This document shows positions 33,840-58,374 of a stretch of 64,000 nt of DNA, in pieces. Every line of letters begins with the position of its first letter. Position 1 is the first letter of the stretch. The notes beneath the pieces are model-generated. The model saw only the letters and a program-made list of their open reading frames with translations. It had not been told where the DNA came from and searched no databases. The DNA is taken from assembly GCA_041661605.1 (NCBI GenBank), contig JBAZUE010000001.1, forward strand, positions 159,467-223,466, in the 5' to 3' direction. Source of the stretch: Candidatus Omnitrophota bacterium. GTDB lineage: Bacteria > Omnitrophota > Gorgyraeia > Gygaellales > Profunditerraquicolaceae. A program made the position numbers and the translations under genes.

Positions 33840-34772
33840 ATGATTAAAAATATACTTGTAATACGCAATGACCGGTTTGGGGAGTTTTTACTGAATATCC
33901 CGGCAATGCGCGCGCTGAAAGAGTTATATCCACAGGCAAGACTTACTTTGGCGGTAAGCCCGGCGGTAGTTGAATTGGCAGGCGCGGTTGAATGCGTTGA
34001 TGAGGCAGTGGCATGGGATCAGATCAAGGGGAATTTAAGTAAGCGTAAGTTTGATCTTTGCGTTGTTTTAAATCCTACAAAAGAGGCGCATTGGGCGGCG
34101 TTCTGGGCAGGCATCCCAGTACGCGTTGGGTATAACAGGAAGTGGGGAGTTTTGCTGACGCATAAATTAAAAGATACTAAATGCCTTGGTGATAGGCATG
34201 AAGTGGATTGTAATCTGGAGTTGGTTTCTTTGATTGGCGCAGGAAATAACGGGATTGCTTCGTCGCAAAAAACGCTCCTCGCAATGACGAAGATTGCCAG
34301 TGATAAATTTGATTTTTTAGCTGGAGCGGTTGCGATTCATCCGTTTACCAGCGATCCGCTAAAGCAGTGGCCTGTTGAAAGGTTTATGGAGTTGGCAGAA
34401 AGGATCACGCAGGAGTTGGGAATAAAGGTTGTAATTGTGGGATTGACGATGGGGAGGAGTAAAGAGATTATTTCGGCGCCTCGCAATGACGGGATTGTTG
34501 ATATGGTCAATAAAACTTCTCTTGTTGAGTTAGCCGCGTTATTGAAACGCTGCTCTTTGCTTGTGTCGGGAGATAGCGGGCCGGTGCATTTGGCAGCTTG
34601 CGTGGGTACGCCTGTGGTGGCTTTGTTCAGGAATGACTTGCCGGGGAAAACCAGCCGGCGTTGGGGGCCGTGGGGAGAGGGGCATGTGGTGATTGAAAAG
34701 GGAAATTTGCTTGAGATAAGCGTGGATGAAGTTGCGGGGGAGGCCAAAAGAATAGTCGGGCGTCATTGTTAA
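33840..34772 (+). CDS. GT9 glycosyltransferase (LPS heptosyltransferase family)
   Basis: ILVIRNDRFGEFLLNIPAMRALK N-terminus and SGDSGPVHLAA motif. Contains two in-frame copies of the CTCGCAATGACG repeat. Confidence 0.8.
   Translation: MIKNILVIRNDRFGEFLLNIPAMRALKELYPQARLTLAVSPAVVELAGAVECVDEAVAWDQIKGNLSKRKFDLCVVLNPTKEAHWAAFWAGIPVRVGYNRKWGVLLTHKLKDTKCLGDRHEVDCNLELVSLIGAGNNGIASSQKTLLAMTKIASDKFDFLAGAVAIHPFTSDPLKQWPVERFMELAERITQELGIKVVIVGLTMGRSKEIISAPRNDGIVDMVNKTSLVELAALLKRCSLLVSGDSGPVHLAACVGTPVVALFRNDLPGKTSRRWGPWGEGHVVIEKGNLLEISVDEVAGEAKRIVGRHC
34253..34297 (+). repeat. ATTGCTTCG-spacer-CTCGCAATGACG element, full copy, in frame inside the GT9 CDS
   Basis: gattgcttcgtcgcaaaaaacgctcCTCGCAATGACGaagattgc; core at 34278..34289. 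Encodes GIASSQKTLLAMTKIA. Confidence 0.8.
34472..34497 (+). repeat. CTCGCAATGACG element, partial copy, in frame inside the GT9 CDS
   Basis: ttcggcgcCTCGCAATGACGggattg; core at 34480..34491. Encodes ISAPRNDGI. Confidence 0.75.
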
Positions 34773-34778
34773 ATTCCC

Positions 34779-34833
34779 TTGACAAAAGATATATATAGTT
34801 TATACTCTATATAGAATATAGCTTATAAACTAT
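34779..34833 (+). promoter_or_regulatory. Sigma70-like promoter with overlapping 10-bp inverted repeat (candidate operator) for the AbiEii-like/XRE pair
   Basis: TTGACA (34779-84), 16 nt, TATACT (34801-06). Perfect inverted repeat ATAGTTTATA (34795-804) / TATAAACTAT (34824-33). Confidence 0.55.
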
Positions 34834-34842
34834 GGGGCGGGA

Positions 34843-35553
34843 ATGGATAAAACGCTTAGGAATTTTCAGTTGGAGGTCTTGAATGCTTTTAAGAGGGTAA
34901 AAGGAAGTTTTGCCCTTGCCGGAGGCACCGCGCTTGAGATTTATTACCTGCAGCACAGGTTTTCTTTAGATCTGGATTTTTTCTCTGTTGCTTTTAATAA
35001 GGATGAGATTGAAAAAATTGTTTCGACGTTCAAGAATTTGCCCGGGGTAAGCCTGAAACGGGAGAACGAAATTAAGCTAAGTGGCGCAGCCAGGGCGGTA
35101 TTCTATACTCTTTCCAGGAAAGGCTTGAAGAGGCCGCTAAAGGTTGATTTTGTCGAGAACAATTTAATCAGCCAGCCTAAAATTGTTAAGTTTAACGGGG
35201 TGCCTGTTTACAGCGCGAAGGATATATACGCTCAGAAAATATACGCTGTATCCGGAACGTCTATCCGGCAGGATGAGGCCGGCAGGTTTTTTTCTGAGGG
35301 GCGAAAAGAAGCCCGGGATGCCTTTGATATTTATATGCTTTCAAAGAAGGTAATGCCGCTGCATAAGTTTATCCGGGAAATGCCTAAGCAGGCCCAGAGG
35401 GGGCTCTTGCATTGGTATAATACATTCTCCCGGCATGATTTTAAGATAGGGCTTATTGACCTGGATATTTACGAGAAAGGCTTTAATTCCCAGGAGATGC
35501 TTATATATCTTGAAAATGAGGTTAAGGAGTTTATCAAAAAAATAGCTATATGA
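34843..35553 (+). CDS. AbiEii/AbiGii-like nucleotidyltransferase (DUF1814-type toxin family)
   Basis: FALAGGTALEIYYLQHRFSLDLDFF (NTase G[GS]...DxD region) and EARDAFDIYML motifs typical of AbiEii-family proteins. Confidence 0.65.
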   Translation: MDKTLRNFQLEVLNAFKRVKGSFALAGGTALEIYYLQHRFSLDLDFFSVAFNKDEIEKIVSTFKNLPGVSLKRENEIKLSGAARAVFYTLSRKGLKRPLKVDFVENNLISQPKIVKFNGVPVYSAKDIYAQKIYAVSGTSIRQDEAGRFFSEGRKEARDAFDIYMLSKKVMPLHKFIREMPKQAQRGLLHWYNTFSRHDFKIGLIDLDIYEKGFNSQEMLIYLENEVKEFIKKIAI

Positions 35554-36062
35554 AAAAAGACTTCGCTAAATATTTCTGGGGATTTAATGATAAGGCTTTA
35601 GCCGAGGCAGGCAAAGCGTTAAAGGATATTAACCATCCGCGTTTTGCATATTACGCGGTAATTTTATTTTCGCGCTGCGATGAGCCAAAAGAAGCCTTTC
35701 ATTTTGTCCCTAAGGATTGTTTTATTTCAGCCTGGCCTAAAATAAAATCTTATTGGCGTCGGCTTAAAGAGAATTCCGAATTCAGGGATTGGTGGCAGGC
35801 TATTTATGAAAGAATGCTTGAAGAAAGAAATGGAAGTCCCGGTCCGACTAAAGAGAGAAGTTCCTCTTATTTTCAGGCTATTGGAGCAAAAATAAGGGAG
35901 AGCCGGATTAAATTGAACATGAGCCAGAAAGAGCTGGCTGGGGCTTGCGGGGTAAGGCAGCCGGATATATCGAAGATTGAAGAAGGCAAAAAGAATATTA
36001 CGCTGGAAACATTGATTAAGATATGCAAGACAATCGGCTTAAAAGAGATCAGTACATTTTGA
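35550..36062 (+). CDS. XRE-family HTH protein with an uncharacterised ~110-aa N-terminal domain (candidate antitoxin/regulator)
   Basis: C-terminal MSQKELAGACGVRQPDISKIEEGKKNITLETLIKICKTIGL is a classic HTH_3/XRE domain. Overlaps the upstream gene by 4 nt (ATGA). Confidence 0.7.
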   Translation: MKKDFAKYFWGFNDKALAEAGKALKDINHPRFAYYAVILFSRCDEPKEAFHFVPKDCFISAWPKIKSYWRRLKENSEFRDWWQAIYERMLEERNGSPGPTKERSSSYFQAIGAKIRESRIKLNMSQKELAGACGVRQPDISKIEEGKKNITLETLIKICKTIGLKEISTF

Positions 36063-36083
36063 AAAAAGGGCAGGATAAACGAA

Positions 36084-36122
36084 ATTGCTTCGGCGCCTGC
36101 GGCGCCTCGCAATGACGAGGGG
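36084..36122 (+). repeat. ATTGCTTCG-hairpin-CTCGCAATGACG element, full copy, intergenic
   Basis: attgcttcGGCGCCtgcGGCGCCTCGCAATGACGagggg; core at 36106..36117. The internal GGCGCC/GGCGCC arms form the stem. Confidence 0.85.
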
Positions 36123-36131
36123 TTGACGAAG

Positions 36132-37514
36132 ATGATATACGCGGTTATTTTAGCCGGTGGGGTAGGAAGCAGGTTCTGGCCGTTTTCGCGCGAGCTTGAG
36201 CCTAAGCAATTCATGAAGATTATCGGAGAGACAAGCCTTTTGCAGGCGACTGTCCAGCGTTTAAAAGGGCTGGTTGAGCCGCGGCGTGTTTATATCGTTA
36301 CAAATAATATTTATTTTTATGAGGTTAAGGCGCAGGTTGCTAAATTCGGCATCCCCGATGCAAATATAATCTTGGAGCCGCAGGGTAAAAATACTGCTCC
36401 AGCAGCCGGACTTTGCGCAAAGCTAATCAGCCGTATCGATAAAGAGGCGGTACTTTTAGTTTTGCCTTCGGACCATTATATTAAGAATACGGGGAATTTT
36501 AAGAAGACGATTAAGAAAGCAATCGCTTGCGCCGGAAAAGATTTCTTAGTTACGATAGGGATTAAGCCGAACGCAGCTTCTACCGGATACGGGTATATAA
36601 AGGCTGGAGCCGGCAAGGGTGGGTATATAGAGGTTGAGAAGTTTTTGGAAAAGCCGGATTTAAATAAAGCTAAAAAATATTTTAAGGATAAGAAATTTTT
36701 CTGGAACAGCGGGATGTTTATCTGGAAGGCTTCGGTATTTCTGGAGGAGGTAGGGAAATATTTGCCCGGGCTGTATGATAGCTTAAGGTCGATCAATTCG
36801 GTAAATGATATACCTGAAATTTGGCCGGATATTGAGCCGGTTTCGGTCGATTACGGGATTATGGAGCACTCTAAGAGGATCGCGTTAATTCCGGCTAATT
36901 TTTATTGGACGGATTTGGGAAGTTGGGAGGCGCTTACGGAGATTTTCCCGAAGGATAAAAAGGGAAATATTTCTAATGGCGATGCTTTGAATGTGGACAG
37001 CCATGGGGTATGCGTGTTTGCCAGAGGCAACAGGCTGGTTTCGACAATTGGGGTTAATAATATGGTTATCGCCGATACCCCGGATGCCTTGCTGGTTTGC
37101 GACAGGAGCAGGACCCAGGATGTTAAGCATCTGGTCGGGAGGTTAAAGGCGCTTAAACGTAAAGAGCATCAGGTGCATTTGACTGAGCGCAGGCCTTGGG
37201 GATCGTTTACTGTTTTGCAGCAGGGAATAGGTTTTAAGATCAAACTTATTGAGCTTGCTTCGAAAAAACGGCTTAGTTTGCAAAGGCATAAGAGCAGGGC
37301 TGAGCATTGGGTGGTGGTAAGCGGGGTGGCAAAGATTACCAGCGACGGTAAGGTTTCATTTGTGCGCAGTAACGAGAGCGTCTATATACCTAAGGGCAGG
37401 AAACATCGCCTGGAAAACCCCCTGCGCAGCCCTTTAAAGATTGTTGAAGTGCAGACCGGGGCGTATTTGGAAGAGGATGATATAGAAAGATTCGAGGATG
37501 ATTTTAAAAGATAA
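36132..37514 (+). CDS. manC: Mannose-1-phosphate guanylyltransferase / mannose-6-phosphate isomerase (bifunctional type)
   Basis: AVILAGGVGSRFWPFSR N-terminus and C-terminal cupin (RPWGSFTVL...HRLENP). The ATG at 36132 is preferred over the track's TTG at 36123, which lies against the repeat element. Confidence 0.9.
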   Translation: MIYAVILAGGVGSRFWPFSRELEPKQFMKIIGETSLLQATVQRLKGLVEPRRVYIVTNNIYFYEVKAQVAKFGIPDANIILEPQGKNTAPAAGLCAKLISRIDKEAVLLVLPSDHYIKNTGNFKKTIKKAIACAGKDFLVTIGIKPNAASTGYGYIKAGAGKGGYIEVEKFLEKPDLNKAKKYFKDKKFFWNSGMFIWKASVFLEEVGKYLPGLYDSLRSINSVNDIPEIWPDIEPVSVDYGIMEHSKRIALIPANFYWTDLGSWEALTEIFPKDKKGNISNGDALNVDSHGVCVFARGNRLVSTIGVNNMVIADTPDALLVCDRSRTQDVKHLVGRLKALKRKEHQVHLTERRPWGSFTVLQQGIGFKIKLIELASKKRLSLQRHKSRAEHWVVVSGVAKITSDGKVSFVRSNESVYIPKGRKHRLENPLRSPLKIVEVQTGAYLEEDDIERFEDDFKR

Positions 37515-38587
37515 TGATTAAGAAATTCCTGATTGTTAATCCGTTTGGGATTGGTGATGTTTTGTTTACTACGCCGGTGATAAAGGCGATTAAGGGGCAA
37601 TATCCGGATAGTTTTATCGGTTACTGGTCGAATTTGCGGGTTAAGCCGATATTAGAAAGCAACCCTCAAATAAATAAAGTTTTCGCCCTTTCGCGCGGGG
37701 ATCTCAAGAAAATTTACCAGGAGTCGTTCTTTAGGGCTGTCTGGAGCGCAATTAAATTAACCCGGGAGATAAAAAAAGAGCGTTTTGATATTTGCCTTGA
37801 TTTTTCTCTTGATCACCGCTATAGTTTATTTGCCAAAATAATGGGGATAGGCAGGCGTATCGGATTTAATTATAAGGGCAGGGGGAGATTCCTTAGCAGC
37901 CGTTTGGACGTAGATGGTTATCATGATAAGCATGTAGTGGAGTATTATTTAGAGCTGCTTAAATTCTTAGATATTCCAGTTAGTGATAAGGGTTTGTTTT
38001 TGGCGGTTTCTCCGGGCGGTGAATTAAAAGCGAGAAATCTGCTTGCGGCATGTGGAATCGAAGAGAAAGATTTAGTAATTGGCATTGCTCCCGGAGCAGG
38101 CGGCAGTTGGGGGAAGGATGCGGTTTATAAGCATTGGCCGGCACTAAAATTCGCTCAACTGGGGGATAGGTTGGTGGATGAGTTTAAGGCTAAGGTGGTA
38201 ATCCTGGGAGATGAATCGGAGCGTGAGATCGCCGAGGTAATATTGCATGCTATGCGCAATAAGCCGGTAGATTTGGTGGGTAAGACGGGATTAGAGATTT
38301 TCCCGGGAATAATCAAAAATTGCAATTTAGTTATTACTAATGATGGCGGGCCGATGCATATGGCGGTGGCGCTGGGGGTTCGTTCAGTTTCTGTGTTTGG
38401 GCCGGTGAGTGAAGCGGTGTATGGGCCGTTTCCTCCAGGCAGCGAGCATGCAGTTTTAAAATGGGATATGGATTGCCGGCCGTGCTATAAGAATTTCAGG
38501 TTACCGGTTTGTGATAGAGATAGGGAGTGCTTGAAGCAGGTGGATGTTGATAAGGTCTTTGATGCGGTGGCGAAGTTATTAAGTTAA
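37514..38587 (+). CDS. GT9 glycosyltransferase (LPS heptosyltransferase family)
   Basis: FLIVNPFGIGDVLFTTPVIKAIK and TNDGGPMHMAVALG motifs. TAATG overlap with manC. Confidence 0.85.
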   Translation: MIKKFLIVNPFGIGDVLFTTPVIKAIKGQYPDSFIGYWSNLRVKPILESNPQINKVFALSRGDLKKIYQESFFRAVWSAIKLTREIKKERFDICLDFSLDHRYSLFAKIMGIGRRIGFNYKGRGRFLSSRLDVDGYHDKHVVEYYLELLKFLDIPVSDKGLFLAVSPGGELKARNLLAACGIEEKDLVIGIAPGAGGSWGKDAVYKHWPALKFAQLGDRLVDEFKAKVVILGDESEREIAEVILHAMRNKPVDLVGKTGLEIFPGIIKNCNLVITNDGGPMHMAVALGVRSVSVFGPVSEAVYGPFPPGSEHAVLKWDMDCRPCYKNFRLPVCDRDRECLKQVDVDKVFDAVAKLLS

Positions 38588-38642
38588 GAATTGTTTTGTA
38601 ACTTATGGAGCTTGAGACGGTTACGTAGACTGTCTACTGAAA
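38586..38642 (+). repeat. AAGAATTGTTTTGTAAC half-element ending in the palindrome GTAGACTGTCTAC, abutting the start codon at 38643
   Basis: aagaattgttttgtaacttatggagcttgagacggttacGTAGACTGTCTACtgaaa followed by ATG. Begins within the upstream gene's stop codon. Confidence 0.8.
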
Positions 38643-40958: not shown

Positions 40959-40973
40959 ATTTTTTTAATAAAG

Positions 40974-41575: not shown

Positions 41576-42667
41576 ATGAGGGTGTTGATTACTTATGCTT
41601 CGGCGGGAGCGGGGCACCGCAGGGCGGCTGAGGCAATATATGGGTATTTAAAAAGCAACCGCAAGGACCTTACGCTTGAGCTGGTTGATGTATTGTCTTT
41701 TACCGGAGGATTCTTTCGTTTTTGCTATAATTCGGGTTATCCGTTTTTAGTGCATTATGCCGTATGGCTTTGGGGATTTTTCTTCTGGTTGACTGAATTC
41801 AGGCTGACCCGGTGGCTTAGCCGTAAATTATCTTTAATTGTAAATTATCTTGGCTGTCGTAGGTTCGTTAGTTATTTAATCAAAGAGGATTTTGATTTTA
41901 TTATTTCCACTCATTTTCTTAATTCAGAGCTGGCCGCAAACTTAAAACTAAGAAATAAAATTCGGGCAAAACTGGTTACGATAATTACGGATTTCGGAGT
42001 GCATCCGTTTTGGGTCTGTCGAGGCACGGATCTTTATATTGCCGCATCAGGCTCAACCAGGGATATATTATTAAAGATGGGGGTTCCGGCTGGCAGGATT
42101 CAAGCTTCCGGTATTCCTGTCAGCCTCAGTTTTACTAAAACTCAAAACAGGGCCCAGTTAGCGCAAAAATTGGGGATAAATGAAAAAAGTTTTACAGTCT
42201 TATTGATGACCGGTTCATTCGGTTCAGGGCCGCTTGAGGAGATCGCCGAGAGTTTTTGCGCTCAGGCGCAGGTGCTGGTAGTCTGCGCGAAAAATAAAAA
42301 ACTTTTTAGCCGCCTGAAAAAGCGGGAATTAAAGAATGTGAAAGTTTTCGGGTTTGTGGATAACGCCGAAGAGCTTATGGGGGTAAGTGATGTTATAATT
42401 ACCAAGCCCGGAGGTTCAAGTATCGCGGAGTTTTTGAATATGGGGTTATTCCCGATATTTATATCGGCTATACCCGGACAGGAGCAGGAGAATATCAGGG
42501 TTTTGTCCGGTTATGGAGTGGGACGTGAGCCAAATAATATCAGGCAGATTAAAGAGCTGGTTATTGAGTTAAAAAACGACCCGCAGAGGTTAGAGGGTTT
42601 AAAAAAGAATATCGCCCAAGCTGCCAAGCCGCTTGCCTGCCAGGAGATATCCAGTGTTATACGCTAA
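41576..42667 (+). CDS. GT28 / MGDG-synthase-family glycosyltransferase (UgtP/MurG-like fold)
   Basis: RVLITYASAGAGHRRAAEAI N-terminus typical of the MGDG_synth domain. C-terminal ITKPGGSSIAE motif. Confidence 0.7.
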   Translation: MRVLITYASAGAGHRRAAEAIYGYLKSNRKDLTLELVDVLSFTGGFFRFCYNSGYPFLVHYAVWLWGFFFWLTEFRLTRWLSRKLSLIVNYLGCRRFVSYLIKEDFDFIISTHFLNSELAANLKLRNKIRAKLVTIITDFGVHPFWVCRGTDLYIAASGSTRDILLKMGVPAGRIQASGIPVSLSFTKTQNRAQLAQKLGINEKSFTVLLMTGSFGSGPLEEIAESFCAQAQVLVVCAKNKKLFSRLKKRELKNVKVFGFVDNAEELMGVSDVIITKPGGSSIAEFLNMGLFPIFISAIPGQEQENIRVLSGYGVGREPNNIRQIKELVIELKNDPQRLEGLKKNIAQAAKPLACQEISSVIR

Positions 42668-44483
42668 GGTTGTATTGGGCCTGCCTATTGACGGGCCGTT
42701 TGATTATTTAGTCCCGCAGGATTTAGAAAATAAGATTTCTATCGGAATAAGAGTATGGGTAAATTTCCGCAACAAAAAAGAAGTAGCCTACGTAACCGGC
42801 TTAAGCAATAAAACCAAAATCAAAAGAATAAAAGAAATTTCAGCGCTTATCGATACAGCGGCTGTTTTGGATGAAAAGATGCTGTTGTTGACCAAGAGGC
42901 TGTCTGAATATTACTGTTGTTCCTGGGGAGAGGCGATTGAGGCGGCGCTTCCGGATGAGTTAAGGAAAGGCAAGGAGATCGGCCTCGCCCCTCTGGGCTC
43001 GGCACTCCCTCGGGCAGTTTGCCCTCGGTCGCTTCTATTTCCTGCGGCGCCTGGCAATGACGCGCTTTTTGTCCAGGGGGTTGAGCGGATGCCGGTTTAT
43101 TTAAGGGAGATCAAAGAAGTCTTAGCTCTTAAGCGTTCGGCGATAGTTTTGTTTAGCGATATCCCGGAGGCAGAAAAGGCTAAGGAGCTAATTGAGAAAG
43201 ATTCAGGCGCGGAGGTTTTCTTGGCATTTCGCAAGCAGCCGGATGAGCTTAAGAGCTGGGAAAAGATCAGGCAGGCGCAGTGTTGCGTTGTTGTCGGGAC
43301 ACGGTCAAATATTTTTTCTCCGGTAAATAACCTGGGTTTAATTATAATTGATCAGGAGCAGGCGCAGGTTTATAAACAGGAGCAGGCACCGCATTATCAT
43401 GCCAGGCAAGTCGCGTTAATGCGCGGGGAGATTTGCGCCGCAAAGGTTGTTTTGGGCAGCCGCATTCCTTCCCTTGAGAGTTTTTACCTTGCGCAAGAGG
43501 ATAAGCTTAAATTTGAAGTTATCCCGGCTAAAGCCGCTTACCCTGAGGTCAAGGTCATCGACGCCCGCCGGCTTTCATACGCGGATAGAAAAAGCAAGCT
43601 CATATTTTCAAAGTTTTTGGCGGATGCGATTTATACAACTTTGAGCGAAAAGGGGAAGGTTTTGTTGTTTATCGAACGCAAGGGTTTTGCAACCAGCGCT
43701 GCCTGCCATAATTGCGGAGCGGCTTTAAAATGCCCGCGTTGCAATATCAACCTGGTATTCCATTTTGATGAAGATAAGTTAAAATGCCATCATTGCAATT
43801 TTAAGATGGATGTGCCTAATATTTGCCCGAGCTGCAATACCGGCTACATTAAATATTCCGGGATAGGCACAGAAAAGGTGGAGAGTGAATTGGCCAAGAT
43901 CTTTCCGCAGGCGCGTATGGATGTAGATATTTTTGTTGCTACCAGTTCAGTAATTAAGCACCAGGATTTGAAGTTTGATTTGATAGGGGTAATGGCGATA
44001 GATAATTCGCTTAACCGGGTGGATTTCCGCGCAGCGGAGAAGACTTTTGGACTGCTTATGGGGCTGGCCAGCTTGACTTCCAAGAAAATGATCATTCAGA
44101 GCGTGAATGTTAACCATCATTGTTTCCAAGCCATAATTAAGAATGACCCGCAGCTTTTCTTGCAAGAAGAGCTGAAGCAGCGCAAACAGTTAAACTTGGC
44201 GCCTTATAAACATATGCTCTTAATAAAACTCAGGGGAATAAACCTGGAGAAGGTTAAGAAAAGCGCCCATGATTTATTTGAAAGGTTAAGCCTGATTAAA
44301 ACCTCCAGTATAAAGATGCTCTCGCTTAATCCCGGCCAGCCGGCTAAATTGCGCGGGAATTTCTATTATCAGATATTAATGCGCGCATCCAGCCCGGAGA
44401 AGGCGAGCCATTTCCTAAAATTACACTTAAAAGAAGGCCATTTTTCGGGTATAATAGTGACAGTTGATATTGATCCTATTTAG
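42633..44483 (+). CDS. priA: Primosomal protein N' (PriA) homologue with degenerate helicase motifs
   Basis: PriA-type N-terminus (VVLGLPIDGPFDYLVPQ). Intact Cys-rich region CHNCGAALKCPRCNINLVFH...CHHCNF...CPSCN. Walker A, Walker B and the arginine motif are not conserved (see findings). An alternative GTG start lies at 42654. Confidence 0.75.
   Translation: MPARRYPVLYAKVVLGLPIDGPFDYLVPQDLENKISIGIRVWVNFRNKKEVAYVTGLSNKTKIKRIKEISALIDTAAVLDEKMLLLTKRLSEYYCCSWGEAIEAALPDELRKGKEIGLAPLGSALPRAVCPRSLLFPAAPGNDALFVQGVERMPVYLREIKEVLALKRSAIVLFSDIPEAEKAKELIEKDSGAEVFLAFRKQPDELKSWEKIRQAQCCVVVGTRSNIFSPVNNLGLIIIDQEQAQVYKQEQAPHYHARQVALMRGEICAAKVVLGSRIPSLESFYLAQEDKLKFEVIPAKAAYPEVKVIDARRLSYADRKSKLIFSKFLADAIYTTLSEKGKVLLFIERKGFATSAACHNCGAALKCPRCNINLVFHFDEDKLKCHHCNFKMDVPNICPSCNTGYIKYSGIGTEKVESELAKIFPQARMDVDIFVATSSVIKHQDLKFDLIGVMAIDNSLNRVDFRAAEKTFGLLMGLASLTSKKMIIQSVNVNHHCFQAIIKNDPQLFLQEELKQRKQLNLAPYKHMLLIKLRGINLEKVKKSAHDLFERLSLIKTSSIKMLSLNPGQPAKLRGNFYYQILMRASSPEKASHFLKLHLKEGHFSGIIVTVDIDPI
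42981..43066 (+). repeat. GC-rich repeat-derived insertion ending in the variant core CTGGCAATGACG, in frame inside priA
   Basis: ggcctcgcccctctgggctcggcactccctcgggcagtttgccctcggtcgcttctatttcctgcggcgcCTGGCAATGACGcgc; core at 43051..43062. Encodes GLAPLGSALPRAVCPRSLLFPAAPGNDA. Confidence 0.6.
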
Positions 44484-44508: not shown

Positions 44509-45443
44509 ATGAAGATTGCATTCTTTGGCAGCGCACATTTCGCGGTCCCCGCACTGAAAGCTTTGATTAAAAGCGGCCATGAGTTGGTTTGCGTGGTTAC
44601 CCAGCCGGATAAGAAGAAGGGCAGGCATTTGCATGTTGCAGGAACTGACGTAAAAAGCACGGCTGTTTCGGCAGGGCTTAAAACATTCCAGCCGGAAGAT
44701 ATTAAAGCTAAGGAAAGCGTAGATTTCCTAAAAAAACTGGAAGCCGAGCTTTTTGTCATTGTGGCTTATGGCCAGGTATTTTCACAGGAGGTCCTGGATA
44801 TCCCGAAGATCATGCCGGTTAATATCCACGCGTCGCTGTTGCCGCGGTACCGCGGGGCAGCCCCTATTAATTGGCGATAATCAACGCGGAGAAGAAGACC
44901 GGAATAAGCATTATATACGTGAGCCTGAAAGTAGACTCGGGCCCGGTTATGCTGCAGAAGGAAATAAAAATTGAAGAAAGCGATAGCGCGATAAGCCTTG
45001 AGGAAAAGCTGCGAAATCTGGGGGCGGAGTTGTTGATGGAGGCCCTTACGATGATTGACAGCAGGAGCTACCGCCTGTTAGAGCAGGATGAAGATAAGGT
45101 AATCCTCGCGCCAAAACTTAAGAAAGAAGACGGTTTAATTGATTGGAGCGCCTCCGCGGCAGATATTCATAATCAGATAAGGGGGGTCTTGCCGTGGCCG
45201 GGGGCTTTTACCTGTTACCGCGGTAAAATTCTTAAAATATTCCAGGCGGATGTCCTGCCGATATTCCCAAATCATAAGCCTGCGCCCGGAGAGGTGGTCA
45301 GGGCGGATAAGCATGAGATTATCGTAGCTTGCGGCAGGGGGTTTTTGAACCTTAAGGAACTGCAGCTGGAAGCAGGCAAGCGTATGTCCGGACAGAATTT
45401 TATCATCGGGCATAAGCTTAAGGTTGGGGATATATTAGTGTGA
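44509..45443 (+). pseudogene. fmt: Methionyl-tRNA formyltransferase interrupted by an apparent 1-nt deletion at about 44874
   Basis: ORF 44509..44880 ends ...NIHASLLPRYRGAAPINWR*. The -1 frame continues AIINAEKKTGISI..., restoring the conserved PINWAIING-type sequence if one G is added after the TGG at 44872-74. Confidence 0.85.
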
Positions 45444-45466
45444 GATTGGCCTCGCAATGACGGGGA
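45444..45466 (+). repeat. CTCGCAATGACG element, partial copy, intergenic after fmt
   Basis: gattggcCTCGCAATGACGgggat; core at 45451..45462. Confidence 0.75.
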
Positions 45467-49886: not shown

Positions 49887-50660
49887 ATGAGAAAAACGAT
49901 TATTGCCGGAAACTGGAAGATGTATAAGACGATCGTAGAGGCTATTGAGCTTGCCAATGGCTTAAAACGTGAATTTTTTAAGCTGGATTTGGAGGCGGTG
50001 GATGTAGTATTGTGTCCGGCGTTTACCGCTTTAAGCGAAGTAGCTGAGGTTTTGGCTGAAACAGGCATCGGCTTAGGCGGCCAGGATCTTTATTGGCAGG
50101 AGGAAGGGGCTTTTACCGGAGAGGTTTCTCCGCTGATGTTAAAAGACGCCGGATGTCAATATGTGATTATCGGCCACTCTGAGCGCAGGCAGTTTTTTGG
50201 TGAGACTAATGAGACTGTGAATAAGAAAATCAAGGCAGCGATTAAAGCCGGGCTTACTCCTATTGTTTGTGTGGGGGAGAATTTGCAGGAAAGAGAAGCT
50301 AATAAAACATTTAAAGTTATAGAAGACCATATCAATAACGGGTTAATAGATATAAGCGGCTCGGACATATTGAAATTAGTCATTGCTTATGAGCCGGTTT
50401 GGGCAATCGGAACGGGCAAGACCGCAACTGGCGAGCAGGCGCAGGAGGTACATAAATTTATCCGTGATTTATTAAAGAAAAATTATGGACAGGAGGCATC
50501 CGACAGCATAAGGATCCAATATGGCGGAAGCGTTAAGCCTGATAATATTACGGAGTTAATGAACAAGCCGGATGTAGACGGCGCCCTGGTGGGAGGGGCA
50601 AGCCTTAAGGCGGATTCTTTTAGCGTGATTGTCACTAAAGCTAGCGAGGTTATAAAATGA
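49887..50660 (+). CDS. tpiA: Triose-phosphate isomerase
   Basis: IIAGNWKMY, IIGHSERR, AYEPVWAIGTG and YGGS motifs. ATG at 49887, 1 nt after the pgk stop. Confidence 0.95.
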   Translation: MRKTIIAGNWKMYKTIVEAIELANGLKREFFKLDLEAVDVVLCPAFTALSEVAEVLAETGIGLGGQDLYWQEEGAFTGEVSPLMLKDAGCQYVIIGHSERRQFFGETNETVNKKIKAAIKAGLTPIVCVGENLQEREANKTFKVIEDHINNGLIDISGSDILKLVIAYEPVWAIGTGKTATGEQAQEVHKFIRDLLKKNYGQEASDSIRIQYGGSVKPDNITELMNKPDVDGALVGGASLKADSFSVIVTKASEVIK

Positions 50661-51025: not shown

Positions 51026-51051
51026 AATATTTAATTTTTAGAGTTTTCTAA

Positions 51052-51080
51052 GGCTACCAGATTAACTGGTAGCCTTTGTT
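51052..51080 (+). terminator. Rho-independent terminator after secG
   Basis: GGCTACCAG-attaa-CTGGTAGCC followed by TTTGTT. Confidence 0.75.
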
Positions 51081-51083
51081 ATA

Positions 51084-51199: not shown

Positions 51200-51207
51200 G
51201 TTAATCT

Positions 51208-52353: not shown

Positions 52354-52400
52354 TAATTATTTATATTGCGTTTTAGGGGGAGATTTTATATAATATAATC

Positions 52401-54220: not shown

Positions 54221-54222
54221 GG

Positions 54223-54672
54223 ATGATTAGAAAGGCGAAAATAAGTGATATAAAGCAAATTCAGGAGTTGATTGCCTGTTTTGCCAAGCGGGATGAGATG
54301 CTGCCCCGTTCGCTGAATGAACTTTATGAGAATATAAGGGATTTCTGGGTATATGAAGATAAAGGCAGGGTAGCTGGATGCGCGGCGCTGCATATCTCCT
54401 GGGATGGCTTAGCGGAAATTAAATCTTTGGCAGTGGCTAAAAATAAACAGGGCAAAGGTATCGGGCAGGACCTGGTGGTAGCCTGCATGGCGGAAGCCAG
54501 GGTTATGGGGGCAAAGAAGGTTTTTGTGTTAACATATAAACCGGAATTTTTTAAAAAGTTAGGTTTTAAAAGAATCAAGCATGATGCCCTTCCGCATAAA
54601 ATCTGGGCGGAATGTATTAACTGCTGTAAATTCCCCAATTGCCAGGAAATTGCCCTGTTAAAAATCTTGTAA
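54223..54672 (+). CDS. GNAT-family N-acetyltransferase (short ArgA-like type)
   Basis: Acetyl-CoA motif LAVAKNKQGKGIGQDLV. C-terminal KIWAECINCCKFPNC tail. Confidence 0.75.
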   Translation: MIRKAKISDIKQIQELIACFAKRDEMLPRSLNELYENIRDFWVYEDKGRVAGCAALHISWDGLAEIKSLAVAKNKQGKGIGQDLVVACMAEARVMGAKKVFVLTYKPEFFKKLGFKRIKHDALPHKIWAECINCCKFPNCQEIALLKIL

Positions 54673-54694
54673 AATCTAAATAATATGGTACAAT
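54667..54694 (+). promoter_or_regulatory. Extended -10 promoter upstream of leader copy A
   Basis: TTGTAA (54667-72), 16 nt ending in TGg, TACAAT (54689-94). Confidence 0.4.
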
Positions 54695-54730
54695 CTTAAA
54701 ACTTGTTATTAATTGGTCATTGGTGGTTTG

Positions 54731-54785
54731 ACACCCGGCCCGAAAGGAAGTGGCCGGTGTGCCCTTTGCGGGCAAGGAGGAAGAG
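54731..54785 (+). promoter_or_regulatory. Structured 5' leader, copy A (two hairpins plus strong SD) upstream of the acyl-CoA dehydrogenase/etf genes
   Basis: ACACCCGGCC-cgaaaggaagt-GGCCGGTGT, then GCCC-tttgc-GGGC, then AAGGAGGAAGAG and ATG. Near-identical to 63137..63190. Confidence 0.6.
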
Positions 54786-55940
54786 ATGGATTATTTGTTG
54801 ACTGATGAACAGAAGATGATCAAGGAGTTGGCGCATAAGATTGCCGAAGATAAGATTCGTCCGGCTGCGGCTAAATATGATATCAGTGAAGAGTATCCCT
54901 GGGATGTTTTAAAGGTTATGGCTGAATCTGATATGTTTGGATTATTCATCCCTGAAGAGTACGGCGGGTTTGCCACCAGTGTTTTTAATTTATGCCTTGC
55001 TACTGAAGAGTTTTCCCGGGCCTGCGGAGGTATCGCTGTTTGCTATGCTGCCAGCGCCTTAGGGACATTTCCGATTGTTTTATTCGGTGATGATGAGCAG
55101 AAGAAGAAATACCTGCCGGATTTGGCGAAAGGCAAGAAGGTAGCGGCATTTGCGATTACTGAACCGGAGGCAGGCTCAGATGCTTCAGGGATAAAGACTA
55201 CCGCGAAAAAAGAAGGCGATTATTATATTTTAAACGGTCTGAAGCATTTTATTACCAATGGCGGTGACGCCGAGACTTATGTTGTGATTGCCATGACTAA
55301 TAAGTCAAAAGGCGCCCGTGGGGCTTCAGCTTTTATTGTAGAAAAGGGGACGCCGGGTTTTACTTTCGGTAAGAAAGAGGATAAATTCGGCATCCGTGCA
55401 TCGAGTACGCGTGAGTTAATCTTTACGGATTGCAAGATTCCCGCAAGAAACCTTCTTTCTAAAGAGGGTATGGGTTTTATCGTGACGATGAAGACTTTTG
55501 ATATGTCTCGACCGGGAGTAGCTGCGCAGGCTTTAGGTATTGCTCAGGGCGCGTTAGAGTTAGCGGTAAAATACGTGCGCGAGAGGGTACAGTTTGGAAA
55601 ACCTATTTCAAGTTTCCAGGGAATTCAGTGGATGTTAGCGGATATGGCAACGGAGGTTGAGGCAGCGCGCGGCCTGGTATATTCGACTGCCAGGATGGTT
55701 GATGCCGGAATCAAGGACGTGGCAAAAGAATCCGCGATGGCCAAGATGTATGCTTCGGATGTAGCGATGAAGGTTACGGTTGATGCTTTGCAGTTATTCG
55801 GCGGGTATGGTTATATGAAGGATTATCCAATTGAGAAATATGTGCGCGATGCCAAGATTACCCAGATTTACGAGGGGACAAATCAGGTGCAGCGTAATAT
55901 TATCGCTTTGGCATTGATCAAAGAAATGGCTAAAATTTAG
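54786..55940 (+). CDS. Acyl-CoA dehydrogenase (butyryl-CoA dehydrogenase-like)
   Basis: Start moved to the ATG at 54786 behind [23 protein letters not shown] motif, QLFGGYGY motif and catalytic YEGT near the C-terminus. Confidence 0.9.
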
Positions 55941-56011
55941 GTAATTATAGTTAATAATAAGTAAAAGTAAGTAAGTTTGAGTAAGTAAGGTAATCAGATA
56001 GGAATTAAAAT

Positions 56012-56794
56012 ATGAATATAGTAGTTTGTATAAAACAGGTCCCTGAGACAACTGAAGTAAGGATTAATCCTGAGACAAATACGCTTATGCGCGAAGGGGT
56101 AAAGTCAATTATTAACCCCTTTGATATGTACGCGATTGAAGAAGCGGTGCGGCTTAAGGAAAGATTCGGGGGTAAGGTTTCTGTGTTGACAATGGGGCCG
56201 CCGCAAGCGGATGGGGCTTTACGCGAAGCAATATCTATGGGGGCAGATGAAGGATTCTTGGTCTGCGACCGCGCTTTTGCCGGAAGCGATACCTGGGCAA
56301 CCAGCTATACTTTGGCGGGAGCAATTAAGAAATTGGGCGCGTTTGATCTGATTATTTGCGGCAAACAGGCTTCAGACGGGGATACGGCGCAGGTTGGGCC
56401 GGGCATATCCACGCATTTAAATATTCCGCAGGTAACTTATGTAAAAAAAATAGAAGAGGCAACTGATAAATTGATGAAGGTTGAGAGGATGCTGGAGGAA
56501 GGATTTGAAATCATCGAGACTCCGCTGCCGGCGCTTTTAACCGTAGTTAAAGAGATCAATGAGCCGAGGATACCTTCGTTAAGAGGATTGATGAAGGCAA
56601 AGTCGGCTAAGATTACTACTTTTACCCAGAAAGAATTACAGTTGGATCCGCAGCAGATTGGCCTGTGCGGCTCACCTACTCAGGTTGTAAAGATATTTAC
56701 TCCTACTCCCAGGGTTGGCGGACAGATGCTTACGGGCGAGATTCCCGATATAGCCAGGCAACTGGTAGATTTAGTTAAAGGCGAGGTTAATTAA
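56012..56794 (+). CDS. etfB: Electron transfer flavoprotein beta subunit
   Basis: MNIVVCIKQVPET..., LTMGPPQA and ICGKQASDGDTAQVGP motifs. Confidence 0.9.
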   Translation: MNIVVCIKQVPETTEVRINPETNTLMREGVKSIINPFDMYAIEEAVRLKERFGGKVSVLTMGPPQADGALREAISMGADEGFLVCDRAFAGSDTWATSYTLAGAIKKLGAFDLIICGKQASDGDTAQVGPGISTHLNIPQVTYVKKIEEATDKLMKVERMLEEGFEIIETPLPALLTVVKEINEPRIPSLRGLMKAKSAKITTFTQKELQLDPQQIGLCGSPTQVVKIFTPTPRVGGQMLTGEIPDIARQLVDLVKGEVN

Positions 56795-56795
56795 G

Positions 56796-58040
56796 ATGCC
56801 GATTTCGATTATTATTGAGAAATGCACGGGTTGTTCTCTTTGCGTAAAAGCCTGCCCGTTTGACGCAATCCGTATAATGGACAAGCTGGAGAGCAGTGGT
56901 TCGGCCTCCGATAGCCGAAGCCAGAAGAAAGCGGTAATCGATTTAAATAAATGCACTCTTTGCGGAGCCTGCAAGGACGCCTGTAAGTTTAAGGCAGTTT
57001 TGTTGGAGAAAACTCCGGCTAAATGTGATTTGCCGGATATAAAAGGTTATAAGGGGATATGGGTGTTTGTTGAGCAGAAGAATGGCAGGGTGCAGTCGGT
57101 TTCATATGAGTTATTAGGCAAGGCGCAGGAGTTGGCCAGGAAATTAAATTGTCAGGTGAGCGGGGTTTTGATCGGTAATAAATTAGAGGACCAATTGGAT
57201 GAGCTGATCTTTTGCGGAGCGGATAACATATACCTGGTAGAGGATCCGGCGCTAGCGAATTTTCAGGATGAGCCGTATACGAATATTTTAGTTGAGTTGG
57301 TAAGAAAATATAAACCGGAGGTCCTTTTATGCGGGGCAACAAATATAGGCAGGTCTTTAATTTCGCGCGTGGCGATAAATATTAAAGCCGGTTTGACCGC
57401 GGATTGCACCGGCCTGGATATCGATCCTGATAAAAAGATACTATTACAGACGCGACCAGCTTTTGGCGGAAATATTATGGCGACAATCATTTCCCCAAAT
57501 TACCGGCCGCAGATGGCGACAGTGCGGCATAAAGTATTTACTCCAATGCCGGCGGATAAAAAACGCAAGGGTAAAGTTATCCGGGAAAATTTTGACAGTT
57601 CTCTTTATGTCTCGCGTACGAAGCTTTTGGATATCATCGAAGAAATTGAATCTACGGTAAATTTATCCGAAGCGGATGTTATTGTCTCCGGGGGTCGAGG
57701 TATGGGGGGAGCTGAAAATTTCAAGATGCTGGAAGAATTAGCGCATGTGTTGGGCGCGGCAGTCGGCTCAAGCCGTGCGGCAGTGGACAGCGGCTGGATG
57801 CCTTATTCGCACCAGGTTGGACAGACCGGCAGGACCGTGGCGCCGAAGATTTATATTGCCTGTGGAATAAGCGGCCAGATACAGCATCTTGTGGGAATGC
57901 AATCCTCGAAGATTATTATCGCCATCAATAAAGATCCCGAAGCTCCGATTTTTAAGGTAGCTACTTACGGAATTGTCGGTGATTTATTCCAGGTTGTTCC
58001 TGCTTTAATCCAAGCTTTTAAGTCTTCTCTGCGAAAATAA
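56796..58040 (+). CDS. etfA: Electron transfer flavoprotein alpha subunit with an N-terminal 2x[4Fe-4S] ferredoxin domain
   Basis: CTGCSLCVKACP and CTLCGACKDAC cluster motifs in the first ~70 aa, then the canonical EtfA sequence (SGGRG, YIACGISGQIQHLVGM). Confidence 0.9.
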   Translation: MPISIIIEKCTGCSLCVKACPFDAIRIMDKLESSGSASDSRSQKKAVIDLNKCTLCGACKDACKFKAVLLEKTPAKCDLPDIKGYKGIWVFVEQKNGRVQSVSYELLGKAQELARKLNCQVSGVLIGNKLEDQLDELIFCGADNIYLVEDPALANFQDEPYTNILVELVRKYKPEVLLCGATNIGRSLISRVAINIKAGLTADCTGLDIDPDKKILLQTRPAFGGNIMATIISPNYRPQMATVRHKVFTPMPADKKRKGKVIRENFDSSLYVSRTKLLDIIEEIESTVNLSEADVIVSGGRGMGGAENFKMLEELAHVLGAAVGSSRAAVDSGWMPYSHQVGQTGRTVAPKIYIACGISGQIQHLVGMQSSKIIIAINKDPEAPIFKVATYGIVGDLFQVVPALIQAFKSSLRK

Positions 58041-58060
58041 GCTTACCCGCAAAAATAAAT

Positions 58061-58192
58061 AAGACGCTTTATGTATCCTCTTGGCATATCTAATGGTTAC
58101 AAAACAATTATTTTCTGCCTAATTTCAGCTATCTAAATCAAAAGAATTGTTTTGTAACTTATTGATAGGAATAGGTTTAGATAAAGCGTCTT
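58061..58192. repeat. 132-bp nested-palindrome element of the same family
   Basis: Perfect 12-bp terminal inverted repeat aagacgctttat / ataaagcgtctt. Inner boxes gttacaaaacaattatttt (58096..58114) and aaaagaattgttttgtaac (58140..58158). Confidence 0.8.
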
Positions 58193-58300
58193 ACGGAGTT
58201 ACGGAGTTTGCGTATACTGTCTACTTTGCATGAATATGCATTGTTTTGCTCTATAACAACCCTGATTTCAGCTATATGTCAAAGAATGTAAAGATTTTCC

Positions 58301-58329
58301 TTGACAAGATTGCTGAAGTTATTTATAAT
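58301..58329 (+). promoter_or_regulatory. Sigma70-like promoter for the HTH-smc genes
   Basis: TTGACA (58301-06), 17 nt, TATAAT (58324-29). Confidence 0.55.
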
Positions 58330-58337
58330 ATTTTCCA

Positions 58338-58374
58338 GATTGCTTCGCCACTTCGTGGCTCGCAATGACGAGGA
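58338..58374 (+). repeat. ATTGCTTCG-hairpin-CTCGCAATGACG element, full copy, in the 5' leader of the HTH-smc genes
   Basis: gattgcttcGCCACttcGTGGCTCGCAATGACGaggag; core at 58359..58370. The internal GCCAC/GTGGC stem differs in sequence from copy 36084 but still pairs. Confidence 0.85.

Follow-up and report, generated by a model that had tools for sequence, protein, structure and literature searches.

A CGTC-tagged hairpin repeat in an Omnitrophota genome is probably part of a widespread family of short, non-autonomous REP-type elements

Palindromic repeats that lie in frame within protein-coding genes are represented by the Rickettsia palindromic elements (RPE), reportedly described by Ogata and colleagues in 2000, among which RPE-1 is ∼100-150 bp long and is restricted to one genus. 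In Escherichia coli, the malE-malF REP and the 5' hairpin of ompA are mRNA stabilizers. The CGTC-tagged REPs are, to our knowledge, a large REP class for which no mobilizing enzyme has been established in general.

The CGTC-tagged superfamily consists of the families CGTC-1 to CGTC-4 and includes the Rickettsia repeats RPE-4 and RPE-6 and a dRS3-type repeat of Neisseria (Di Nocera, De Gregorio and Rocco 2013, BMC Genomics 14:522; PMC3733652). In the parts of that paper used here, these repeats are described as having an unpaired CGTC tag (with the variants TGTC and CCTC), a stem whose first and second positions are complementary A-T residues, mostly a CCA tail, continuous stems of 8-9 bp and loops of 4-5 nt; inverted dimers predominate, tandems are rare, in-frame copies occur within genes, often those for replication and repair, and no transposase is reported to be associated with the repeats (PMC3733652). 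Among the peptides that the paper gives for its four families are VIPAKAGI, VIPGLDPGI, DGRVKPGHD and VIPVLDTGI (PMC3733652). REPIN sequences are lineage-specific, vertically inherited and absent from plasmids (Nunvar 2010; Bertels and Rainey 2011, 2022), and the Neisseria REPIN ATTCCCGCGCAGGCGGGAATC has been linked to a Group 2 RAYT (bioRxiv 10.1101/2021.07.10.451892).

The window analyzed here, a 64-kb stretch of DNA from an Omnitrophota bacterium, contains the 12-nt core CTCGCAATGACG at 34278, 34480, 36106, 45451 and 58359, and the variant CTGGCAATGACG, with one mismatch, at 43051, all on the + strand. An earlier note that had reported these six positions in one orientation is confirmed, with 0.18 occurrences expected in the window and none of the 100 shuffles reaching six. 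The left arm ATTGCTTCG is found 5' of the core at 34254, 36084 and 58339, that is, in the three full-length copies already recognized; taken alone, this 9-mer is not enriched in the window (17 matches vs 20.7 expected). The copies, together with a promoter that is read from the sequence and is not part of the repeat, are as follows.

34251..34289, + strand, full copy, GT9 site 1: GGG-ATTGCTTCG-TCGCAAAAAACGCTC-CTCGCAATGACG
34464..34491, + strand, short copy, GT9 site 2: GAG-ATTATTTCG-GCGC-CTCGCAATGACG
36081..36117, + strand, full intergenic copy: GAA-ATTGCTTCG-GCGCCTGCGGCGC-CTCGCAATGACG
43017..43062, + strand, decayed copy, priA hypervariable linker: core CTGGCAATGACG, translated ...FPAAPGNDA
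45442..45462, + strand, minimal or truncated copy directly 3' of fmt: GAG-ATTG-GC-CTCGCAATGACG
58301..58329, + strand, predicted consensus sigma-70-type promoter: TTGACA, 17 nt, TATAAT
58336..58370, + strand, full copy opening the HTH_17-smc leader: CAG-ATTGCTTCG-CCACTTCGTGG-CTCGCAATGACG

The first two copies both lie inside the gene for a GT9 heptosyltransferase (33840-34772), and not in fmt. The copy at 34251..34289, with its apical hairpin partly decayed, is translated in frame as G-IASSQKTLLAMT, and the one at 34464..34491, with two mismatches in the left arm and a spacer of 4 nt, as EIISAPRNDG. The 36081..36117 copy, for which folding gives -17.7 kcal/mol, lies in the gap between manC and an HTH antitoxin gene that stops at 36062; 3' of the copy come AGGGG (SD) and the start of manC. 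In the priA copy, GGCAA finds its pairing partner in a compensating left arm, TTGCC. The GAG tail of the 45442..45462 copy shares bases with TGA, the stop codon of fmt, and the 58336..58370 copy is followed by AGGAG (SD) and an ATG at 58386; the predicted transcription start at ∼58336-58337 would put this last copy at the extreme 5' end of the mRNA. The previously noted positions of the intergenic copies, before manC, after fmt and in the HTH-smc leader, match. The outer stem, ATTGC/GCAAT, is likewise confirmed, as are the two spacer stems, which are GGCGCC/GGCGCC in the copy with its hairpin at 36093 and GCCAC/GTGGC in the one with its hairpin at 58347. The count of only three complete copies was too low: those at 34464 and 45442 are whole units too; their left arm is degenerate or shortened, and their spacers measure 4 or 2 nt.

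A covariance model was derived from 23 copies, all from other organisms and hence independent of those in the window. It recovers five window copies, at 36080-36119 (51.2 bits, E 3e-12), 58335-58372 (48.1 bits, E 2e-11), 34250-34291 (36.6 bits, E 4e-8), 34463-34493 (22.5 bits, E 4e-4) and 45441-45464 (17 bits, E 0.014). The decayed copy with the core at 43051 (43017..43062) is missed by the model. The putative weaker relative at 10414 is likewise not recovered (E > 10) and does not belong to the family, and the candidates for additional copies at 9472-9509 and 50376-50411 were rejected. Rfam 15 yields no match to the window at the gathering score and, at E up to 10, only chance-level matches around the copies.

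On the complementary strand, where all six window copies read CGTC, the unit is (C/T)GTC-ATTGC-GA-G[variable hairpin]C-GAA-GCAAT-C(C/T)(A/C). It is composed of an unpaired CGTC or TGTC tag, a 5-bp foot helix, ATTGC/GCAAT, that starts with A-T, a conserved purine-rich 2x3 internal loop (GA/GAA), an apical hairpin that is free in sequence and ranges in size from a GC-GNA-GC mini-hairpin to 7-9 bp, and a CCA-like tail. An example of the single-stranded DNA form is d(CGTCATTGCGAGCGAAGCGAAGCAATCCA). The GAC part of the tag was fixed by the search pattern and the following base was free; among 346 copies, G accounts for 44-63% of these bases and A for 32-51%, so that the tag reads CGTC or TGTC in ∼95%. 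In the flank, G occupies position -1 in 96-98% of the copies, followed outward by R (G/A) at -2 and K (T/G) at -3, so that the tail on the tagged strand is CCA, CTC or CCC, with TGG (CCA) dominant in inverted pairs; the tails in the window are CCC, CTC, TTC, CTC and CTG. Predicted stability favors the CGTC strand over its complement in 86% of the copies with DNA parameters and in 94% with RNA parameters. The internal loop does not qualify as a k-turn, since its bulged strand has 3 nt where 5 are needed.

Conservation is confined to the arms, and the center changes in sequence yet keeps its pairing. The spacer varies between 4 and 30 nt, and the 5-nt spacers are CTNCG, that is, GC-GNA-GC on the other strand. 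Among unselected spacers of 15 nt (24 distinct copies), the four inner positions pair in 79-96%, with three to four types of pairs, which exceeds all 500 column shuffles, and stems of at least 4 bp are present in 42% of the spacers compared with 5% of the shuffles. These numbers bear out the selection for spacer structure that had been proposed from two copies, and the description of the repeat as a REP- or MITE-like structured element holds.

The resemblance to the CGTC superfamily, as described in the parts of the 2013 paper used here, extends to the CGTC or TGTC tag, the A-T start of the stem, the CCA-like tail and the outermost bases (GGATT...AATGACG), which are identical in both. As in that superfamily, there are frequent inverted pairs, mostly heterodimers, a distribution over several phyla, no adjacent transposase gene, and copies within genes (GT9 loops and the PriA linker), with priA as the replication and repair gene in this case. 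In contrast to the continuous stems of 8-9 bp in the published families, the stem here is interrupted and consists of the 5-bp foot, the GA/GAA loop and the variable apical hairpin; furthermore, the arms ATTGCGAG...CGAAGCAAT match no peptide listed for the four families in the tables of the paper, and the phyletic range is wider, with phage contigs and plasmids added. Judging from these listed peptides, the element appears to be a variant that is distinct in sequence from all four published CGTC families.

Other known systems share some but not all of these features. With the GTAG REP/REPIN-RAYT systems, the element has in common a tetranucleotide tag with a hairpin, inverted doublets of ∼80-90 nt that can fold as one hairpin, and the lack of autonomy that implies a presumed action on single-stranded DNA, and the REPIN tied to Group 2 RAYT in Neisseria has a CGTC-1-type sequence; the tag, however, is CGTC instead of the GTAG of the classical REP/REPIN. 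Like RPE, the element is palindromic, occurs in frame within protein genes and is tolerated in surface loops and linkers, but, unlike RPE-1, it adds only 9-15 codons and is present in many phyla. Short conserved arms around a variable structured center and a presumed function as a folded single strand recall attC sites and the subterminal hairpins of IS200/IS605, from which the element differs in having no integrase or TnpA nearby, no cassette or IS structure and an unrelated sequence. Intercistronic or 5'-terminal hairpins within operons are also typical of the E. coli REP and 5' stem-loops; an effect on RNA would be only a prediction from sequence for the element, and the 5426 E. coli genomes searched with BLAST yielded zero matches.

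The distribution of copies among orthologous sites in related Omnitrophota, which vary in the junctions and protein loops that carry the element, reveals presence/absence polymorphism. At GT9 site 1, the orthologs in L244 (GGGC/GCCC hairpin) and L245 (GGC/GCC) have a copy at the same position and most orthologs have none; in the loop of GT9 site 2, copies are intact in L246 and L257, and L243 retains a decayed remnant. The manC junction lacks the element in L259, L282 and L311, and only the remnant GGCAATGACGG is found in L248. The PriA linker of other Omnitrophota contains EIASDASRPRNDA (P0002), ..ALLAMT.. (P0033) or a tandem pair (P0061). Intragenic copies use different reading frames, that is, the nucleotide sequence is kept and the peptide is not, and hairpin pairing is maintained even within coding sequence (GT9). 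At the level of sequence comparison, the element is inserted DNA, and the copies at 34464, 43017 and 45442 have decayed after insertion. Comparison of filled and empty junctions yielded no rule for target sites or duplications, and the divergence between the two is too high for the insertion boundaries to be fixed.

The bipartite pattern with identical arms is represented by at least 120 loci in IMG/VR viral contigs and at least 120 loci in GTDB genomes. The GTDB matches listed include Alpha- and Gammaproteobacteria, Chloroflexota, Patescibacteria, Bacteroidota, Cyanobacteria, Planctomycetota, Zixibacteria, Campylobacterota, Firmicutes and others, at least 12 phyla altogether, and copies reside on plasmids of Methylocystis, Methylosinus, Novosphingobium, Legionella, Calothrix and Halomonas. 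The repeat is therefore not characteristic of one lineage, as had been suggested. A full-text literature search for the arm sequences retrieved only unrelated primers, and the 14-mers were absent.

About one-third of the genomic copies occur in inverted pairs. Neighboring copies face each other with their tails in 48 pairs and with their tags in four, whereas the two copies share one strand in 15. In the 48 tail-to-tail pairs, the gap mostly measures 24-28 nt and has CCAG...CTGG at its borders; 39 of these pairs are heterodimers, in agreement with the published account of CGTC REP dimers (PMC3733652). In the window and its lineage, by contrast, the copies are single, without inverted dimers. 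In the Omnitrophota loci, 18 of the 19 full copies are on the gene strand, as are all six copies in the window, and these copies sit at short intercistronic junctions just 5' of ribosome-binding sites; in the phage contig L015, five consecutive intergenic gaps each contain a sense copy. In other taxa, intergenic single copies are in the same orientation as the genes in 35 cases and in the opposite one in 44, and the opposite orientation is about twice as common where the coding strand is clear, although the coding-strand calls are crude, being based on ORFs, and are mostly ambiguous in GC-rich DNA. The written orientation is on the G-rich strand in 96:42 copies in viral contigs, and genome loci show no such bias (43:53). 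Across the taxa examined, there is no universal rule of orientation relative to genes or GC skew.

The interpretation that appears best supported, with a probability of roughly 0.7, is that the window copies are members of a very widespread REP-type family, made up of short palindromic repeats that are not autonomous. The strongest competitor, which we nevertheless regard as unlikely, is a selected cis-acting RNA element, an intercistronic or 5'-terminal mRNA hairpin that serves as a stabilizer, an RNase processing site or a translation modulator and is kept by selection in Omnitrophota and some phages, with the arms as the site of an RNA-binding factor. The co-orientation in Omnitrophota just upstream of ribosome-binding sites, the five sense copies in the phage contig, the start of the 58336 copy ∼7 nt past the consensus -10 box and the hairpin pairing preserved in coding sequence are all consistent with such a role, and the gene-strand bias is not predicted for a purely neutral DNA parasite. 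However, GC skew is positive throughout the Omnitrophota data, so that co-orientation with genes is inseparable from co-orientation with replication, and the inconsistent, if anything opposite, orientation in other taxa, the paired third of the genomic copies, the unrelated neighboring genes and the antisense position, in the window, of the better-folding strand with the purine loop all count against it. For a strand-specific form of the RNA- or protein-binding site in the earlier note, in general, the frequent inverted pairs are contrary evidence, to which the lack of consistent orientation across taxa and the multiple reading frames can be added. A transcription-factor operator was rejected because the spacing of the arms varies from 12 to ∼40 nt, and CRISPR and tRNA-like readings were rejected as well, with no tRNA found in the window.

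The attC-like architecture of short conserved arms and a variable structured center in a folded single strand could also indicate an integron-like site of site-specific recombination that marks mobile cassettes, such as the AbiEii-HTH toxin-antitoxin pair, which is mobile between operon junctions and is followed by the 36081 copy in the window. We consider this very improbable: in L259, L282, L311 and L272, the cassette is present without the element at its borders, which led us to reject it as element-bounded cargo, there is no integrase or other recurrent gene nearby, the arms are unlike the R and L boxes of attC (GTTRRRY), and copies occur within genes and as inverted pairs. Recurrence of the 12-mer by chance or composition, without biological meaning, might be argued from the lack of enrichment of the left arm alone, but is already refuted by the excess of cores over expectation, the E-values of the independent model and the hundreds of copies elsewhere that share the bipartite anatomy.

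If the copies are indeed REP-type repeats, the folded single strand would be the substrate of a trans-acting enzyme of the HUH/Y1 (RAYT) type that reads the tag and the foot of the hairpin, by analogy with the GTAG REP-RAYT systems and with the CGTC-1-type REPIN that tracks Group 2 RAYT in Neisseria. Transcribed copies might incidentally serve as mRNA hairpins; in the window, one would fold into a stem-loop at the 5' end of the HTH-smc mRNA and another into a hairpin between cistrons, ahead of manC. A search of 2.5 Mb of loci with a RAYT/TIRYT HMM, built from sequences in the supplement of the 2013 CGTC-REP paper, detected a single Y1_Tnp ORF (L247, 4560-5309), which the element does not flank. 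Clustering of the ORFs beside ∼350 copies revealed no shared neighbor gene family, the neighbors being phage structural genes and assorted housekeeping genes, and therefore a link to the four-helix-bundle genes of 23S-rRNA-IVS is unsupported. Identical arms across phyla and the presence in phage contigs and plasmids fit poorly with the lineage-specific, vertically inherited REPIN-RAYT picture. A repeat with invariant arms that is shared in this manner and continues to insert, in proteins such as PriA and a heptosyltransferase as 9-15 in-frame codons, may tentatively be taken to point to an undiscovered, horizontally travelling mobilization system specific for CGTC-tagged hairpins, although we find this rather doubtful. 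In place of the REPIN-RAYT partnership, such a system would involve another enzyme or a HUH/Y1 clade that is new, perhaps carried by phages, and it would explain the ‘orphan' CGTC REPs.

The motif in the window is thus best viewed as one set of copies of a cross-phylum repeat family, not as a regulatory site of one lineage. The identical arms across phyla and the polymorphism between close relatives make the element good material for finding the enzyme by co-occurrence, and it is also suited to studying the tolerance of palindromic DNA inside genes. Recognition of the copies should improve the annotation of uncultivated lineages because, in addition to real in-frame insertions in proteins, they give rise to spurious ORFs and N-terminal extensions, such as ...DCFASLAMK in L123.

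The core CTCGCAATGACG occurs exactly at positions 34278, 34480, 36106, 45451 and 58359 of the window and with one mismatch at 43051, in all cases on the + strand. The repeat reported in the earlier note is thus borne out, with six copies against 0.18 expected from composition; none of 100 dinucleotide-preserving shuffles reached six, and chance was rejected as an explanation. The left arm ATTGCTTCG stands ahead of the core at 34254, 36084 and 58339, and this 9-mer by itself is not enriched in the window. A covariance model built from 23 copies from other organisms, with the window-identical copy left out, recovered five copies when the window was scanned with filters off, all on the + strand:

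36080, + strand, covariance match, 51 bits, E 3e-12
58335, + strand, covariance match, 48 bits, E 2e-11
34250, + strand, covariance match, 37 bits, E 4e-8
34463, + strand, covariance match, 22.5 bits, E 4e-4
45441, + strand, covariance match, 17 bits, E 0.014

The unfiltered scan missed the 43051 variant, and the weak relative suspected at 10414 was not picked up by the model either. Two further weak matches, at 9472 and 50376, looked unlike family members on inspection. The former (9472-9509) is a distinct small hairpin, GAG-ATTAGC-AGAA-GCTAAT-TAG, intergenic and located right before the ATG at 9502; it lacks the CGTC tag, scores weakly (E 0.14) and was left out of the copy count.

The anatomy of the element emerges from ∼350 copies. 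The base 5' of ATTGC is G in 96-98% of these, the two bases ahead of that G are R and K, and a purine follows GAC; on the other strand, the unit reads YGTC-ATTGC-GA-G[center]C-GAA-GCAAT-C(C/T)(A/C). The outer helix of ATTGC and GCAAT and the spacer hairpins are present as first described. The center takes three forms, namely, 5 nt CTNCG, which on the other strand is GC-GNA-GC with N free, 11 nt TCGCTNCGCTC, the same mini-hairpin with GA/GA on its flanks, and a hairpin of 4-9 base pairs whose sequence is free. GC-GNA-GC corresponds in sequence to the d(GCGNAGC) mini-hairpins, which are known for their high stability. Among unselected copies, 42% of the spacers of at least 7 nt contain stems of at least four consecutive Watson-Crick pairs, compared with 5% after shuffling. 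Among the 24 distinct spacers of 15 nt, pairing at the four inner positions is seen in 79-96% of the copies, with 3-4 pair types, more than in any of 500 column shuffles; the outcome is the same for lengths 11, 12, 13 and 17. The CGTC-tagged strand carries purine-rich mismatches and, by prediction, folds more stably than the complementary strand in 86% of the copies (DNA parameters) or 94% (RNA parameters). About one-third of the genomic copies form inverted pairs with the ATTGC ends facing, mostly 24-28 nt apart with CCAG...CTGG at the borders of the gap, and 39 of 48 such pairs have different centers. Some viral contigs carry head-to-tail arrays (L048, 2695-2817, 4 x 33 nt; L020 and L021, 2 x 43 nt and 2 x 30 nt); CGTC REPs are described as seldom lying in tandem (PMC3733652).

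Pfam assignments correct the gene labels given previously and place the copies in the following setting:

33840-34772, + strand, GT9 heptosyltransferase gene (GT9a), holding the copies at 34251 and 34464
34843-36062, + strand, AbiEii/HTH toxin-antitoxin pair
start just 3' of the 36081 copy, + strand, manC
42633-44483, + strand, priA, holding the 43051 variant
end at 45443, + strand, fmt, its stop codon overlapped by the 45442 copy
58301-58329, + strand, consensus promoter TTGACA-17-TATAAT, upstream of the 58336 copy

Long ORFs all lie on the + strand, as does every gene-like ORF of at least 100 aa, and GC skew is positive throughout (0.13-0.30 over all 64 kb), an extreme gene co-orientation. 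The same DNA is also found in an assembly of run SRR18595301. A 1-nt frameshift in ...AATTGG(G)CGATAATC... breaks the fmt gene (44509-45443) near 44872-44880 into two ORFs, the first with Formyl_trans_N positions 1-123 and the second with the remainder; fmt may be a true pseudogene, or the shift may have arisen in sequencing or assembly.

The element consists of inserted DNA whose arms are conserved and whose center covaries, and it is polymorphic between close relatives. In the orthologous operon Wzy-GT2-GT9a-(manC)-GT9b-DegT, taken from 79 related metagenome contigs, it occupies the same place (site 1) in GT9a of the window and two relatives, with different, compensated centers; at that place, the sequence is ordinary in most orthologues, among them L243, the closest at 78% identity. 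The variants at the two GT9a sites are as follows:

Site 1, window, TCGC..CG..CTC, partly decayed
Site 1, L244, TC-GGGC-AGA-GCCC-TC
Site 1, L245, GGC-TTAT-GCC
Site 2, window, short copy
Site 2, L246 and L257, intact, GCTG/CAGC and CCCCGCC/GGCGGGG
Site 2, L243, decayed remnant

The element is tolerated in frame within protein loops and decays after insertion. The nucleotide arms are constant while the reading frame varies (..IASS..LLAMT.. vs ..PRND..), so it is the DNA, not the peptide, that is conserved. Intercistronic copies are found, depending on the relative, at manC→GT9b, GT9b→DegT, Wzy→GT2 and GT9a→manC, and in L253, the element provides the TGA stop of GT9a. The junction that holds the 36081 copy in the window is empty in L259, L282 and L311, and only a remnant, GGCAATGACGG, is left in L248. 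The same two GT9a loops accommodate a second palindrome, GGGGACAGTCCCC-N3-GGGGACAGTCCCC (translated ..RGQSPxGTVP..), in other relatives (L253, L257, L261, L265, L270, L271 and L311); its half-sites have 27 matches in 504 kb of related loci, and the window has only single degenerate ones, at 16786 and 30955. The AbiEii-HTH pair, with its own promoter (TTGACA/TATACT at 34779; insert region 34779-36062), is a mobile insert in this LPS operon, located at GT9a/manC or manC/GT9b depending on the relative and missing from most (comparison loci L248, L259, L261, L282, L311, L249 and L272).

The exact pattern ATTGCTTCG-N(4-30)-CTCGCAATGAC was found at at least 120 loci in IMG/VR viral contigs and at least 120 in GTDB contigs (one genome per species). 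The GTDB matches listed include Alphaproteobacteria, among them many Bradyrhizobium, Sphingomonas, Rhodospirillales and Rickettsiales, as well as Gammaproteobacteria, Chloroflexota, Desulfobacterota, Patescibacteria, Bacteroidota, Cyanobacteria, Melainabacteria, Zixibacteria, Planctomycetota, Ignavibacteria, Latescibacterota, Helicobacter, Sporomusa and others. BLAST adds intergenic copies on plasmids of Methylocystis, Methylosinus, Novosphingobium, Legionella, Calothrix and Halomonas and a few deposited phage genomes. The distribution, though wide, is patchy, as 5,426 complete E. coli genomes contained no match. The earlier reading of a REP-like element stands, but not its restriction to this lineage, given the occurrence of the same arms across many phyla. 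The ORFs adjoining the copies share no common family and encode phage structural or assorted housekeeping proteins. No matching family is present in Rfam 15, and a full-text literature search for the arm sequences returned nothing relevant.

The element is a REP-type repeat, an ordinary kind of object. As defined by Di Nocera, De Gregorio and Rocco in 2013 (PMC3733652), CGTC-tagged REPs combine a CGTC tag (or TGTC/CCTC) that stays unpaired, a stem that opens with A-T pairs and a CCA-like tail. They form mostly inverted dimers, often heterodimers, occur in several phyla, also lie within genes, especially those for replication and repair, and have no associated transposase. The element shares all these features, and the outermost bases GGATT...AATGACG are common to both, but its stem is not the unbroken 8-9 bp closed by a 4-5-nt loop, and its sequence differs. 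The four families in that paper encode VIPAKAGI/DSRLRGND, RHSELVSGS, VIPGLDPGI/DGRVKPGHD and VIPVLDTGI, corresponding to ATTCCCGC-type stems. None of the twelve peptide words predicted from ATTGCGAG...CGAAGCAAT appears as a REP-encoded peptide in its supplements, where the lone CFAS match lies inside a transposase alignment. Because the CGTC features are shared, yet stem architecture and sequence differ, we treat the element, as compared with the text and supplements of that paper, as a putative further, structurally variant family of the CGTC superfamily, outside the four. What sets this family apart is an unusual architecture, an exceptionally wide distribution with invariant arms and the clear in-frame insertions in Omnitrophota proteins.

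By analogy with GTAG REPs, the folded single strand, with its tag and hairpin foot, would be recognized by a trans-acting HUH/Y1 enzyme. According to Bertels and Rainey (bioRxiv 10.1101/2021.07.10.451892), the Neisseria REPIN ATTCCCGCGCAGGCGGGAATC decays where its Group 2 RAYT carries a frameshift. By its sequence, this REPIN is of CGTC-1 type, which sets a precedent for a CGTC-type repeat that depends on a RAYT. An HMM made from the RAYT/TIRYT sequences of the 2013 supplement, run over 2.5 Mb of fetched DNA, where a single-copy gene is rarely expected, found one Y1_Tnp ORF (L247, 4560-5309, Pfam E 8e-15). This ORF, an IS200-like Y1 transposase gene with a 15-bp-stem hairpin ahead of it, follows directly on GT9a in a relative of the window, at the junction that holds the toxin-antitoxin cassette in other relatives and in the window itself; no copies of the element flank it.

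Transcribed copies would act as mRNA hairpins. The 58336 copy has the promoter on one side and, on the other, the Shine-Dalgarno sequence of an HTH_17 gene with smc after it; this copy would form a stem-loop at the very 5' end of the HTH-smc mRNA. The 36081 copy would form a hairpin between cistrons, 5 nt ahead of the manC ribosome-binding site. The main rival is a selected RNA function. The pattern in phage contig L015 points in this direction, and so does the strong sense-strand bias in Omnitrophota, which covers all 6 copies of the window and, among full copies in relatives, 18 of 19. This bias is inseparable from replication direction in these data and is not seen in other taxa, where copies face the other way just as often or more often. 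An attC-like explanation was rejected.

Insertion of a REP-type repeat is also apparent in PriA, where 120 homologues show a hypervariable linker from ELRKGK to the conserved (F/L)xQGxxRMPVYLREIK block. NCBI names PriA homologues Candidatus Omnitrophota/Omnitrophica, which places the window in that phylum, and in some of them, the linker contains recognizable translations of the element:

P0002, EIASDASRPRNDA
P0033 and P0036, ..LLAMT/..ARNDG
P0061, tandem, two copies

FPAAPGNDA in the window PriA is a decayed copy shared with the 94%-identical relative P0001. Other repeat-like peptides in this linker include GLAPLGSALPRA.CPRS (window, 42981-43016; P0001, P0044, P0045, P0049 and P0063), tandem KIDPTPI(N/S)(V/G) units and translated GTVSIFP...KIETVP palindromes; short repeats in general seem to accumulate in this linker. 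The PriA of this lineage is ∼600 aa long, compared with ∼730 aa in E. coli, and Pfam finds no helicase ATP-binding domain in it. In the homologues inspected, the conserved (F/L)xQGxxRMPVYLREIK block takes the place of the Walker A motif (GxGKT) at aa ∼150-160, which suggests that the PriA of this lineage may be ATPase-dead or otherwise unusual.
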